From positions 2,296,236 to 2,360,235 of the forward strand of contig OZ244731.1 in assembly GCA_965219295.1 (NCBI GenBank): 64,000 nt of DNA, in the 5' to 3' direction. Position numbers and translations under genes: made by a program. The notes below the pieces were generated by a model. That model was given only the letters and a program-made list of their open reading frames with translations. It was not told the DNA's origin and searched no databases. This document shows, one piece after another, positions 1 through 63,083 of the stretch (position 1 is its first letter; every line of letters starts with the position of its first letter). The DNA comes from Pedobacter sp. Its GTDB lineage: Bacteria; Bacteroidota; Bacteroidia; Sphingobacteriales; Sphingobacteriaceae.

Positions 1-503
1 GCCAATTGGTTAATCTGTTCTGGAAAATCCCTAAAATTTTCTATATCCAATGTTAAGGCGTTTTTAAATCTACCCAACTGATGTTCATAGTTGGATCGCA
101 CATCTAAAATGATAACGTCTTCCTGATCTTTCATCGCCAAAAAGTCTTGCGGCTCTAAGTGCTTCCCAGTTTTCTCTACTGGGTTTATGATAGATGTATC
201 TCGTAAACCAGAGTGGACAATTTCTGTCTTATACCTACAGTGCATTTTAATGAAAGTAGGCTGATCCACCTCGTCTATTTTAAATTCCGTTTTTGCAAAG
301 CGTTCATCGGAATGAATGGATTTTATATAAGCATTACAATCAGTTAGTGTTCCAGATACAGTTCCGTTTAATCCTTCATCGGCCACAATAATGCGACCAA
401 CAAGATTTAAAGATTTGCAAAAGGCTAAGTGGTCGATGGCAAACTGCTCTGCATCTGCAATTGGCGAATAGCAGTAGTAAAGTAAAGTTAAGTATTTTTT
501 CAT
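1..503 (-). CDS. trhO: Rhodanese-domain tRNA U34 hydroxylase TrhO/YceA (UPF0176), partial; runs off the window start
   Basis: Manual translation from ATG at 503: MKKYLTLLYYCYSPIADAEQFAIDHLAFCKSLNLVGRIIVADEGLNGTVSG..., with the GRI...EG.NGT motif and a later GKHLEPQDF...VIILDVRS rhodanese start. Not in the ORF track. Confidence 0.85.
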   Translation of the reverse strand, partial: MKKYLTLLYYCYSPIADAEQFAIDHLAFCKSLNLVGRIIVADEGLNGTVSGTLTDCNAYIKSIHSDERFAKTEFKIDEVDQPTFIKMHCRYKTEIVHSGLRDTSIINPVEKTGKHLEPQDFLAMKDQEDVIILDVRSNYEHQLGRFKNALTLDIENFRDFPEQINQL

Positions 504-782
504 AATGCATTGATACCGCTGCAAACGGCGTTTAAGGCGTTACAAATTTACGAAAAAACGCTGAACGAAAAAGTGTTGTGATCGTCTTTTTGAGGTTTGT
601 TTCCAAAAAGGAGATACAAAGCGCGCTTTGTTTATAGGTACAGCAACGTGGCAAAAACGGTAGCACGAAGGTTATAGGCACCCAATCTCTTATCGTGGCT
701 CTTTATTTATTTAGTTGTTTATTCTAAGCCCTAATTTTTAGCCGGAGCCTTTCTAATTGTAACGAAATTTTGGCAAATCTTT

Positions 783-809
783 TGCAACAATTGCTCCTAG
801 CATGCGTTT
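783..809 (+). promoter_or_regulatory. Putative ECF-sigma promoter TGCAAC-N16-CGTTT
   Basis: TGCAAC at 783-788 and CGTTT at 805-809 with a 16-nt spacer, matching the AAC/CGT ECF promoter architecture. Confidence 0.55.
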
Positions 810-814
810 TGAAC

Positions 815-936
815 ATACTTTAGTTAATTCTAAGGTACCTCGAGCGGAGTAGTTAACCGCGACAAAGAGGTTCTTCATAAATAGTTTGTTTGGTTTAAAT
901 TCCGGTTACAGCTCCCAGCTGCGACCGGATTTTTTT
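815..936 (+). ncRNA. Candidate small RNA (~120 nt); 5' end estimated
   Basis: Bounded by an ECF-type promoter and a strong intrinsic terminator. The downstream gene has its own -7 promoter (949-956). No plausible + strand ORF. Confidence 0.5.
901..936 (+). terminator. Rho-independent terminator
   Basis: TCCGGTTACAGCT-CCC-AGCTGCGACCGGA stem followed by a T7 run. Confidence 0.8.
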
Positions 937-948
937 GCATCTTTTTTC

Positions 949-956
949 TACATTTG
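949..956 (+). promoter_or_regulatory. Bacteroidota sigma-A -7 element for pnuC
   Basis: TACATTTG matches TAnnTTTG. It overlaps the TTG used by the ORF track, so the ATG at 969 is the likelier start. Confidence 0.55.
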
Positions 957-968
957 CCAAACCCTACT

Positions 969-1568
969 ATGAATCAACTTATAAATTATTTTTTACAAAC
1001 TAGTTTATTAGAGTGGTGTGGAGTCTTCACAGGCATTTTATGCGTTTATCTTGCCGCAAAAAATATTATTTGGAATTGGCCAATAGCCATCGTTAGCGTA
1101 ATCATCTATATTTTTATTTTTTATGAGGCAAAGCTTTATGCAGATACTGGCTTGCAGGTTTATTTTTTAGTAATGAATATTTATGGATGGTACTATTGGA
1201 ATGAAGAGCGCAAAAGTGAAGCCGAGCCGCGACCGGTAAGTTCTATAAGACCAAAAGAAATCTTCCTTTCCGTATTAGGTGTGATTGTGTTTACGTTAAC
1301 ATTGGGATTTTACTTCCATCAGAAAACCGATGCAGCAGCGCCCTATTTAGACAGTTTTTGCACTGCAATAAGTTTAGTTGCACAGGTTTTTCTTGCCCGC
1401 AAGGTTATAGAGAATTGGCTTATGTGGATATTTGTTGATCTTATTTACATTGGCTTGTACATTTACAAGGGTTTGTACGCGACATCTGGCATGTATGCAT
1501 TGTACATTTACATTGCCGTTATGGGGTATTTAGAATGGAAAAGAACGTATCGTGAACAAACAAATTAA
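969..1568 (+). CDS. pnuC: PnuC-family nicotinamide riboside/vitamin transporter
   Basis: Multi-TM protein with WNWP, YGWYYW, DSFCTAISLVAQ and ENWLMWIFVD motifs. Confidence 0.85.
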   Translation: MNQLINYFLQTSLLEWCGVFTGILCVYLAAKNIIWNWPIAIVSVIIYIFIFYEAKLYADTGLQVYFLVMNIYGWYYWNEERKSEAEPRPVSSIRPKEIFLSVLGVIVFTLTLGFYFHQKTDAAAPYLDSFCTAISLVAQVFLARKVIENWLMWIFVDLIYIGLYIYKGLYATSGMYALYIYIAVMGYLEWKRTYREQTN

Positions 1569-61241: not shown

Positions 61242-63083
61242 ATGAAAAAGCGAAGTTTCTGGTTCATCACCATTTTAATGACGTTGGCCTTGTTAGGCGT
61301 TTTTATAATGCAATTGTATTATATTAGGGAAGCCTACAATCTAAAATGCCAACTTTTTGATCAGCAGGTTAATCAAACACTTCGAACCGTTGTTGGCAAA
61401 CTGCAAAAACAAAACGCCTTTAATTACTATAGCCGTAAAGAAGCTAGAGATAAACGGCAGCGGATAATTGATTTGAGGCAACGCGAATTACAACTCGCGG
61501 ATGCAAAAAAAAACTATGAAACGCTTTTGGATCGTAACCGCTTAAGTCATCAACGGCAGATAGAAGCAGAGCTGATTTCGCAAGACAGTGTAATTCGCTC
61601 CTTTTACCGCAAACCGGTAATTTTATCAGAAACTGATTTTAAAGCCGCAGATGCCCGGAACGGACAAAATCCAAATTCGCCTGTAAGGGTTGATGTGTAC
61701 GCAAATGTTGATGAGAATTTCAACATTGTTAGCGGGTCCATTTCAACAAAATTTACACCGACGGGGCGGCGAACCTTAAACTTCAATGGCGGGAAATTGC
61801 CAGATTCCATCCGCTATGCTGCGCAAGACCCAAATACAGGCAGAATCGTGCTAATATCTTTGGCTACTGTGCAGCCAAATGTAAAAACGAGGTTTAAAAA
61901 AGAAAGCTTTCTTGCTAAAAAAGAATACGAACAAAAAGTCCGGTTTCTACGTTCAGATTCTGCGTTTGTGTACACCGCAAATTTAAGTCAGCTAGAAGAT
62001 GTTGCCAAAGAAATGAGCCAACCAAATTTGCCGTTAGATAAACGGATAGATTTTAGCCAGTTGAAACCTTTGTTAAAAAAAGAATTTAGGAACAGTAATA
62101 TCAATCAGCCCTTTACTTATTCCGTAAATCTTGCGCGCAAAGATTCCGTGCTTTTTGCAAGTAACGGTGGCGAAAAAAATAACTTTACAGATAACAATAC
62201 ATATTCTACCAATCTAGATAATAACGGCCTATTTAGAGACCCAGGTGTGTTGATGGTTAGTTTTCCAAACAAAAATTCGGCAATACTTTCTAATCTAACA
62301 GCAACCGTAGCATCATCTGTGGGATTGTTGTTGGTTTTGGTTTTTATTTTCAGCTATACCCTTTACGCAATTCTCAGGCAAAAAAAGTTATCTGAAATGA
62401 AGACAGACTTTATAAACAACATGACGCACGAGTTTAAAACGCCAGTTTCAACCATAATGATTGCCAGCGAAGCGCTGAAAGACACAGAGGTTAGTAGGGA
62501 TAAAAACCGGTTAAAACGACTTGCTGATATAATTTACGATGAAAATGTTAGGCTAGGAAACCATATAGAAAGGGTGCTTAGCATCGCGCGCTTAGAAAAG
62601 AATCAACTCAGTATGGACAATAGCGAGGTGAATATGAACGAGCTTATTGCAGTGGTAATTGATTCGATGGATTTACAACTGGAAAAACGAAACGCAATAA
62701 TAGATTTGAAATTAGAAGCGGATAAATCTACCGTTTTTGGCGATGAACTCCACTTATCTAATGTAATTTTTAATTTAGTAGACAATGCAAACAAATACAG
62801 TTTAAACCACCCATACATAACCATCTCTACTGAAAATACGTCCAATAATTTAATTATTAAGGTGTCTGATAAAGGCATTGGAATGAGCAAAGACCACAGT
62901 AAAAAAATATTCGAACAGTTTTACAGAGTACCGACCGGAAATCTGCACGATGTGAAAGGTTTTGGCCTAGGATTAAATTACGTGCAAGATATTATTAAAC
63001 AAATAAACGGTCGCATTAAAGTACGTAGCGAAAAAGACAAAGGCACCACGTTTGAAATCTTATTACCCTTATTAACCACTTAA
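61242..63083 (+). CDS. rprX: Sensor histidine kinase (RprX-like)
   Basis: FINNMTHEFKTP, NLVDNANKY and GFGLGL motifs; ATG 61242 preferred. Confidence 0.8.
   Translation: MKKRSFWFITILMTLALLGVFIMQLYYIREAYNLKCQLFDQQVNQTLRTVVGKLQKQNAFNYYSRKEARDKRQRIIDLRQRELQLADAKKNYETLLDRNRLSHQRQIEAELISQDSVIRSFYRKPVILSETDFKAADARNGQNPNSPVRVDVYANVDENFNIVSGSISTKFTPTGRRTLNFNGGKLPDSIRYAAQDPNTGRIVLISLATVQPNVKTRFKKESFLAKKEYEQKVRFLRSDSAFVYTANLSQLEDVAKEMSQPNLPLDKRIDFSQLKPLLKKEFRNSNINQPFTYSVNLARKDSVLFASNGGEKNNFTDNNTYSTNLDNNGLFRDPGVLMVSFPNKNSAILSNLTATVASSVGLLLVLVFIFSYTLYAILRQKKLSEMKTDFINNMTHEFKTPVSTIMIASEALKDTEVSRDKNRLKRLADIIYDENVRLGNHIERVLSIARLEKNQLSMDNSEVNMNELIAVVIDSMDLQLEKRNAIIDLKLEADKSTVFGDELHLSNVIFNLVDNANKYSLNHPYITISTENTSNNLIIKVSDKGIGMSKDHSKKIFEQFYRVPTGNLHDVKGFGLGLNYVQDIIKQINGRIKVRSEKDKGTTFEILLPLLTT

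Follow-up and report, generated by a model that had tools for sequence, protein, structure and literature searches.

Introduction

The closest described system to the element studied here is the FopS group of small RNAs (sRNAs) of Bacteroides thetaiotaomicron, comprising 14 paralogues that share a seed and a terminator, one of them derived from a 3' untranslated region (3'-UTR); they are induced by a membrane stress (bile salts) and keep susC mRNAs from being translated by pairing close to their start codon, an action antagonised by RbpB (PMC11697453). This study focused on a short intergenic element in a Pedobacter genome (3.97 Mb, 38% G+C), which lies at about 797/815–936 on the plus strand of a stretch of 64,000 nucleotides (hereafter the window, whose coordinates are used unless a genome position is given), and which appears to follow the same logic as FopS, with the same predicted class of target. 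The account that best fits the comparative data, and which is considered on balance probable, is that the element is a gene for a trans-acting sRNA that represses SusC-like transporters, has a probable sigma-54-type promoter, and goes back to the 3'-terminal part of a lipoprotein gene. Its parts carry different weight. It very likely belongs to a genus-wide, undescribed family of trans-acting sRNAs; it is probably under the stress control of sigma-54 and/or an extracytoplasmic function (ECF) sigma factor; and it probably represses the translation of SusC-like transporters, a statement made with some reserve.

Like FopS and GibS (PMC11697453, PMC7366714), the Pedobacter RNAs are a multicopy group in the Bacteroidota, whose members share a conserved, single-stranded seed with an intrinsic terminator after it and are intergenic or 3'-UTR-derived. 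The short paralogues described below as type 3 may even have the same seed-then-terminator layout. There are also clear differences. No sequence or Rfam relationship was detected (no FopS or GibS match at E up to 10 on window 400–1200), Pedobacter belongs to another class (Sphingobacteriia), and it carries 1–4 copies rather than 14. The seed of the window copy follows two hairpins whereas that of FopS is at the 5' end, and FopS genes have canonical sigma-ABfr promoters whereas the window sRNA has sigma-54-like and ECF-like elements and no TAnnTTTG box upstream. Lastly, the targets of FopS have been shown, while those of the Pedobacter RNAs are only predicted.

More distant parallels exist among other bacteria. 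MicA, RybB and MicL of enterobacteria are part of an alternative-sigma stress regulon that includes sRNAs shutting down abundant outer-membrane proteins. For MicL, the promoter lies within the coding sequence of cutC, whose 3' end the MicL gene overlaps, and a similar intragenic-promoter origin is suggested below for the type-2 loci. These RNAs differ in being Hfq-dependent, in their sigmaE-type promoters and unrelated seeds, and in targeting porins and Lpp rather than SusC-type transporters. An earlier note on this DNA, made from the sequence alone, had likened the element to MicA and RybB; the logic of the comparison (a stress sigma factor driving an sRNA against outer-membrane proteins) still holds, but promoter, seed and targets are different. 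Among sRNAs driven by -24/-12 promoters are Qrr1-5 of Vibrio, paralogues with a long (~32-nt) invariant region, and GlmY/GlmZ of enterobacteria. The glmY gene has overlapping sigma-54 and sigma-70 promoters, and such sharing of overlapping promoters by two sigma factors is possible for the window sRNA, although sequence, targets and physiology are unrelated. Rfp18 and other sRNAs of Flavobacterium psychrophilum are likewise genus-conserved Bacteroidota sRNAs, found alongside mapped sigma-54 and ECF promoters, but Rfp18 pairs via a stem-loop with protease mRNAs and no similarity to the Pedobacter sRNA was detected (PMC9723704).

Post-transcriptional control in Bacteroidota beyond the gut Bacteroides is almost unexplored. 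To our knowledge, Bacteroidota lack both Hfq and Shine-Dalgarno-based initiation, so how their sRNAs find and block mRNAs is an open question. The Pedobacter family offers an easily testable case in culturable soil bacteria, with an exceptionally long invariant pairing region, and its predicted SusC-type target class, which parallels that of FopS, would suggest that sRNA control of such transporters is ancient or recurrent in the phylum.

Conservation and Structure of the Proposed RNA

When the intergenic region was compared by BLAST with 40 relatives, matches were found in 18 of the 24 genomes of the same genus and in none of the 16 genomes of other families, the conserved portion corresponding to window 803–935. 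Its most striking part is an invariant single-stranded region, the putative seed (TTCTTCATAAATAGTTTGTTTGGTTTA, 871–897, plus strand, with CAT at 876–878), which falls within the 29-mer TTCTTCATAAATAGTTTGTTTGGTTTAAA (871–899) that the earlier note had singled out. Over 130 distinct loci, nearly all from Pedobacter and including second and third copies per genome, carry a sequence identical to positions 873–897 (CTTCATAAATAGTTTGTTTGGTTTA), which does not change at all across loci of types 1 to 3 (defined below); the sub-core at 882–896 (TAGTTTGTTTGGTTT) is also common to more distant paralogues. Scanning a species-representative collection of prokaryotes (one genome for each species) for exact copies of the 21-mer CATAAATAGTTTGTTTGGTTT gave at least 119 stretches, of which nearly all belong to Pedobacter or Nubsella; two matches without a terminator look like chance. 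The core 16-mer was present exactly in all seven further Pedobacter genomes but, among 143 genomes of the family from 36 other genera, in only three. In every family member a hairpin and T-run directly follow the core, with differing sequences and compensated pairing, and genomes carry 1–4 paralogues.

The loci can be sorted by structure and setting. Type 1, which includes the window copy, has two hairpins and is free-standing, upstream of pnuC or a nadR-like gene. Type 2 has one hairpin and often begins right after the stop codon of a lipoprotein gene of ~173 amino acids (aa). Type 3 is short, with a conserved GGGGCTTATGGATTTAAGCCCC hairpin, and always lies downstream of a gene for a hydrolase of the metallo-beta-lactamase (MBL) fold. 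Types 4 and 5 retain only TA(G/A)TTTGTTTGGTTT of the core and occur in other genomic contexts; like type 3, they are unlinked to NAD genes. Since the seed of such distant paralogues is reduced to UA(G/A)UUUGUUUGGUUU, its CAU part is not universal.

There was no relevant match to Rfam 15, either for window 400–1200 (E up to 10) or for type-2, -3 and -4 loci (E up to 5), in keeping with the earlier note, which did not recognise a named family. A match to the L20 leader on a relative's locus (L015, 22.7 bits) was dismissed as chance. The literature searched for Pedobacter sRNAs gave no description of the family, and no Pedobacter transcriptome paper was found.

A covariance model (R1) was built from 29 type-1 sequences, and a search with it gave 85 loci. 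Within this genome the sole strong match is window 814–935 on the plus strand (G000 2297049–2297170; 101 bits, E = 3.5e-15), which marks the minimal RNA body. From the 5' end, the consensus comprises hairpin 1 (818–835, CTTTAG/CTAAGG; helix 1), hairpin 2 (837–871; helices 2 and 3, with outer stem ACCTC/GAGGT and inner stem GCGG at 844–847 with CCGC at 857–860), the invariant stretch, which is unpaired in the covariation-supported consensus, and an intrinsic terminator at 901–936, formed by the hairpin TCCGGTtaCAGCtcccaGCTGcgACCGGA (901–929; an interrupted stem of 12 pairs with a 5-nt loop; helix 4) and T7 (930–936). In the model-fitted alignment, 94.2% of cells pair, compared with 75.4% in column shuffles (0/500 reached the observed value) and 34–52% when partners were slid by 1–3 columns. 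Compensatory double changes are seen in 27/27 pairs of the four helices, i.e., all 6 of helix 1 (87.8% of cells paired), all 9 of helices 2 and 3 (95.6% and 97.4%) and all 12 of helix 4 (95.9%). Stem variants of hairpin 2 among loci include CTTC/GAAG, CTCC/GGAG and GTGG/CCAC. When RNAalifold was applied to a MAFFT alignment made independently, only the base of the terminator was recovered (4/8 pairs compensated), hairpin 2 being too variable in length to align without the model.

The terminator hairpin has a folding energy of -17.8 kcal/mol (z = -5.7; 0/200 shuffles as good), which bears out the earlier description of a strong terminator, and the fold of the 123-nt body is better than those of all 200 shuffles (z = -3.4). 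The window terminator was missed by a consensus terminator scanner, probably because its stem is interrupted by an internal mismatch. A terminator with 12/12 covarying pairs and a conserved promoter-like block upstream point to an independent transcription unit with a predicted start, the 5' end of the RNA being placed between about 797 and 817 and its length at ~120–140 nt. The proposal of the earlier note that this is an independent sRNA gene is thereby strengthened, as promoter block, covarying hairpins, invariant unpaired stretch and terminator all recur in relatives; the individual features that it named (TGCAAC-N16-CGTTT, the 871–899 segment, the hairpin with T7, the box at 949–956 and a minus-strand open reading frame, ORF) were likewise all recovered where it had placed them.

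The comparative evidence shows the window element to be best read as a non-coding RNA gene, and not as a small protein gene or a pnuC leader. The first of these alternatives would make the conserved stretch the leader and start codon of the 41-aa ORF on the minus strand (878..753), and ATGAAG with an A-rich leader does resemble a Bacteroidota translation start. The earlier note had itself named evidence that this ORF is conserved and translated as something that would overturn the sRNA interpretation. However, the ORFs that begin at the conserved ATG are unrelated in sequence and frame across 29 loci and measure between 2 and 45 aa, loop indels in the hairpins do not come in multiples of three, and the hairpin and T-run form a terminator only on the plus strand. 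The comparative data already refute a small protein gene, which is regarded as extremely improbable, and the sRNA interpretation survives. Several orthologues also lack the plus-strand ATG at 802.

Relationship to pnuC and nadR-like Genes

The element sits within a divergent intergenic region of 444 bp (525–968), flanked on the minus strand by a UPF0176/rhodanese (TrhO-like) gene and on the plus strand by pnuC (969–1568) and then a nadR-like AAA_28 ATPase gene (1552–2094). Where enough downstream sequence is available, type-1 and type-2 loci nearly always have pnuC and/or a nadR-like gene on the same strand, within about 60–250 nt, and this linkage stays while the upstream neighbour changes. 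Such an association would be expected of a cis-acting, riboswitch-like leader or attenuator of a nicotinamide-riboside operon, in which a ligand or protein on the invariant stretch would control read-through. Against this, pnuC has its own sigma-A-type -7 box (TACATTTG, 949–956, plus strand), which lies after the terminator, outside the RNA and 12 nt before the pnuC ATG (969), so pnuC is independent of read-through; a TA(C/T)(A/T)TTTG box is also found between terminator and start codon, mostly 5–35 nt before the start, in most of 79 downstream pnuC/nadR-like genes. Paralogues with the same core are found in unrelated contexts, and it is the structured parts that vary and the unpaired part that is invariant, the opposite of an aptamer. 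No Rfam riboswitch match was seen at E up to 10, including for the NAD+-II pnuC motif class, and at several loci other genes are inserted between the element and pnuC. Nor is the seed complementary to pnuC/nadR-like start regions (-8.1 vs -7.7 kcal/mol for shuffles). An attenuator is accordingly very unlikely, as the earlier note had also argued, and the linkage is taken to reflect inherited synteny, over a very short spacer in which the pnuC promoter lies.

Predicted Targets

No extended antisense partner of the seed was found in the genome in an ungapped search allowing up to 6 mismatches of 27, also with G:U pairs, and a seeded genome-wide duplex scan gave an uninformative list. A class-specific signal was obtained, with statistical support in four genomes, for the mRNAs of SusC-like/TonB-dependent outer-membrane receptors, which are the predicted targets. 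The seed is complementary to their start regions from about -22 to +5: in good duplexes CUUCAU pairs with AUGAA, and GUUUGUUUGGUU pairs with an A/C-rich leader at about -22 to -5. In this genome, 27 such starts gave a mean duplex energy, computed without accessibility, of -11.86 vs -9.27 kcal/mol for others (Mann-Whitney p = 3e-5), and none of 12 dinucleotide-shuffled seeds separated receptor from other starts (differences +0.55 to -0.78). For the 16-nt sub-core, the receptor-vs-other difference was -1.73, compared with -0.18 +/- 0.38 for 40 shuffles. The signal was repeated with 29 SusC-like starts of three other Pedobacter genomes, where the mean was -12.74 vs -8.91 +/- 0.85 for shuffles (0/40 as good) and 13/29 starts reached -14 or lower (shuffle mean 1.1). 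The motif AACCAAA lies within 40 nt upstream of the start in 6/27 receptor genes (22%) and in 49/2,699 others (1.8%; Fisher p = 1e-5).

Two single candidates were tried and rejected. The first is a 340-aa porin-like gene near amtB (L159, G000:C1 1851452, minus strand), whose leader is not kept in three close relatives and one distant relative where the start could be located. The second is gldL, a gene of gliding motility and the type IX secretion system, which in one relative (L190, G011:C1 ~4,292,200) has a perfect 15-nt core complement 28 nt upstream of the start that is absent here. As a separate observation, the porin-like leader contains three tandem AAATCAAACAAAT units plus AAATCAAACAAACTATG, each of the four being complementary to the sRNA core with G:U pairs. 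This repeat is specific to the species and could be a multi-site target or a sponge.

Promoter Region and Sigma Factor

Two promoter-like elements precede the RNA on the plus strand. A sigma-54-type -24/-12 element, TGGCAAATCTTTTGCA, occupies 771–786 (GG at 772–773, GC at 784–785, thus GG-N10-GC) and implies a start near 797. The ECF-like pair TGCAAC-N16-CGTTT occupies 783–809 (TGCAAC 783–788, CGTTT 805–809) and implies a start near 815; its -35 hexamer overlaps the -12 box of the first element. The block at 804–823 (GCGTTTTGAACATACTTTAG, plus strand) is near-invariant in an alignment of 11 orthologues, in which the preceding 15 nt vary freely, and would represent either an ECF-type -10 region plus start or the 5' end of a sigma-54-initiated transcript. 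Type-3 and type-4 paralogues carry a related block, GTTTT(A/G)TATA.

The conserved form of the sigma-54-like element is TGGCAA-N5-TTG(C/T)A, with exact -24/-12 spacing. TGG-N8-TTG[CT] occurs at a fixed 103–107 nt before the core in 38/40 type-1 loci, 33–36/51 type-2 loci and essentially no type-3 locus (n = 39), against a background of 0.02–0.06 per window (0.06 per 250 nt). The ECF-like motif A[AC][CT]-N16/17-[CG]GTTT was found in 39/40 type-1, 37/51 type-2 and 14/39 type-3 loci (33/39 in a looser form), with a background of 0.05–0.07 per 230 nt. Among type-2 lineages, 11 have the sigma-54-like motif only and 15 the ECF-like motif only, and therefore both motifs may be functional.

The genome encodes rpoN and three bona fide enhancer-binding proteins, and TGGCA(C/A)-N5-TTG(T/A)(T/A), without the canonical C in its -12 box, lies directly upstream of its chaperone and protease genes: dnaK (TGGCACATACATTGTT, G000:C1 3378982, minus strand), htpG (TGGCAATTATTTTGTT, G000:C1 3591300, plus), grpE (TGGCAAAAAAGTTGTA, G000:C1 479833, minus), clpB (TGGCACTTGTTTTGAA, upstream of the start at 1298812, plus), lon (TGGCACAGGAGTTGAA, upstream of the start at 3889765, minus) and, in a weaker form, groES (TGGCATAAAAAGTGAT, upstream of the groEL start at 3114755, minus). 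TGGCA-N6-TTG was present in 5/7 chaperone promoters examined, compared with a per-window expectation of 0.005 (binomial P ~1e-10). In F. psychrophilum, differential RNA sequencing assigned groESL, lon, dnaK, grpE-dnaJ, htpG, skp and clpB to a sigma-54 motif, in a regulon described as serving protein quality control and envelope stress (PMC9723704). From these motifs, the chaperone/protease genes of this Pedobacter are a putative sigma-54-type heat-shock regulon like the one mapped there. Several of these chaperone promoters also have CTGTCA/TGACAG repeats just upstream, and at groES a TTGACAG-N13-TGTCAA sequence may be an activator site.

The earlier note had proposed ECF control of the sRNA. 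In this version, the same RNA would be transcribed by an ECF sigma factor from TGCAAC-N16-CGTTT with a start near 815, and TGGCA would be a regulator site or irrelevant. The spacing AAC/T-N16/17-(C/G)GTTT is kept in types 1, 2 and 3 despite differing upstream sequence, the 15 type-2 lineages just mentioned and the type-3 paralogues keep the pair without any TGGCA, conservation of the RNA body begins right after the CGTTT motif, and the ECF promoters of F. psychrophilum are marked by CGT as the -10 box (PMC9723704). However, most relatives have GTAAT or GTACT as the -35 sequence, and many type-3 loci have GGTT or AGTT as the -10; ECF control alone does not explain TGGCAA at exact -24/-12 spacing in non-coding type-1 loci; the 11 type-2 lineages mentioned above have the sigma-54-like motif only; and a genome-wide scan for a regulon with the AAC/CGT motif gave nothing convincing. 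Exclusive ECF transcription is thus possible but not the expected outcome: the pair is conserved as the note had implied, but ECF control is not established by it, given the overlap of its -35 with the conserved -12 box. Because TGGCAA-N5-TTG(C/T)A overlaps the pair and recurs before dnaK, htpG, grpE, clpB and lon, sigma-54 control is at least as likely, and for the window copy sigma-54 is put slightly ahead of ECF, with sigma-54, ECF or both possible.

Two further sequence features lie upstream. In the window, a direct repeat, TTATAGGTAC ... TTATAGGCAC, is found between 600 and 700, ~100–150 nt upstream of the sigma-54-like element, and in relatives an inverted repeat, TGTAC-N9-TACA, is located about as far upstream. 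Both are candidate enhancer-binding-protein sites.

Proposed Mode of Action

In the proposed sRNA gene, a promoter block is followed by two 5' hairpins, an invariant, unpaired stretch of 25–27 nt and an intrinsic terminator. Transcription would probably start from the sigma-54-type promoter, which resembles those of the chaperone genes, with the overlapping ECF-type promoter used instead or in addition. The unpaired stretch is predicted to base-pair with the translation initiation regions of mRNAs for SusC-like/TonB-dependent transporters, GUUUGUUUGGUU on an AACCAAA(C/U)-type leader motif and CUUCAU on AUGAA(G/A), so that the ribosome landing site would be occluded and translation repressed. 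Many targets would use overlapping parts of the stretch, which could explain why all 25 nt are frozen. A sigma-54 promoter would tie this repression to the protein-quality-control and envelope-stress response and, if confirmed, the chaperone-like promoter would link the sigma-54 stress regulon to outer-membrane remodelling. It could be speculated further, as a tentative and rather doubtful extension, that sigma-54-driven sibling sRNAs are the missing post-transcriptional arm of the Bacteroidota heat-shock/envelope-stress regulon, born from a lipoprotein 3' end and shutting down dozens of SusC-like/TonB-dependent transporters at once via a 25-nt consensus anti-start-region.

Several points weigh against an sRNA acting and controlled in this way. 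Taken over all ~3,800 crude start regions, the seed had no clear excess and no more than a marginal advantage over its dinucleotide shuffles, and complementary 8-mers were not enriched in start regions over permutations, so a generic anti-start argument is unsupported; the anti-start seed of the earlier note can be upheld for SusC-like/TonB-dependent receptor mRNAs but not for starts in general, nor with its CAU as a universal part. The best-scoring start region of all belongs to a SusC-like receptor gene, and the class was chosen after this top rank had been seen, making the test partly post hoc. Start codons were first-ATG guesses from a crude ORF call, and neither of the individual candidate sites, at the porin-like gene and at gldL, is conserved. 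Fitting of the structural alignment to the model and the relatedness of the genomes mean that the pairing and compensation counts overstate independence, and single-sequence minimum-free-energy folds of the window copy, judged untrustworthy, pair part of the seed weakly. In the promoter region, the -24 element is missing from 15/51 type-2 loci and all type-3 loci, no activator site common to the chaperone promoters and the sRNA promoter was recognised, and the -12 box is TTGT in most relatives rather than the canonical TTGC. The last of these is no argument against sigma-54 in this genus, since the chaperone genes carry the same motif with a relaxed -12 box.

The length of the invariant stretch also allows a different view, in which it acts at the level of DNA or protein binding without a base-pairing role, e.g., as a site for an RNA-binding protein, or is the remnant of a mobile element near terminators. 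An invariance of 25 nt exceeds that of typical seeds, and no long perfect target was found. However, the loci are syntenic and show no inverted repeats, transposase genes or target-site duplications, and the complementarity to SusC-like starts is class-specific in four genomes. Such an element is considered highly improbable, and a base-pairing sRNA is preferred.

Proposed Origin from a Lipoprotein Gene

Comparison of type-1 and type-2 loci suggests where the sRNA gene came from. The promoter block of type 1 (...ATTATTGGCAATAATGTTGTAATAAGCAGAACATATATGCGTTTTGTATATAC...) gives a gap-free alignment with the final coding portion of the upstream lipoprotein gene in type-2 loci (...AATATTGGCAACAATCTTGTACTAGATATAGACAATTCACGTTTTGTAGATGA..., encoding ..IGNNLVLDIDNSRFVD..), whose last codons contain the 5' arm of hairpin 1. 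The block is kept where the lipoprotein coding sequence is gone. On the simplest reading, the ancestral state would be a 3'-UTR sRNA with an intragenic promoter in a lipoprotein gene, and the present gene would descend from that 3' end (promoter plus 3'-UTR). The lineage of the window would have lost ~110 nt of lipoprotein coding sequence and retained promoter and RNA. The two types would together give a clear snapshot of a 3'-UTR-derived sRNA becoming a free-standing gene.

Further Family Members and Related Loci

This genome has a second, divergent member (...GATATAGATTAGTTTGTTTGGTTTttaaaaGGGATTTATGGATATAAATCCCttttt; G000:C1 ~828,330–828,420, minus strand), which has just the 15-nt sub-core in common and falls into the type 4 subfamily, also seen at L194, L196 and L198. 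In a relative, a sub-threshold match to the thiamine pyrophosphate (TPP) riboswitch was noted at L015:98-229 on the minus strand (43 bits vs a gathering score of 54), ~1.3 kb from a type-2 sRNA. At another locus (L197, G003:C4 ~62,900–62,990) the complement of the core, AAACCAAACAAATTA, is found on the opposite strand, directly before a terminator hairpin and T-run. The site may mark where an RNA ends that could serve as a decoy for these sRNAs.

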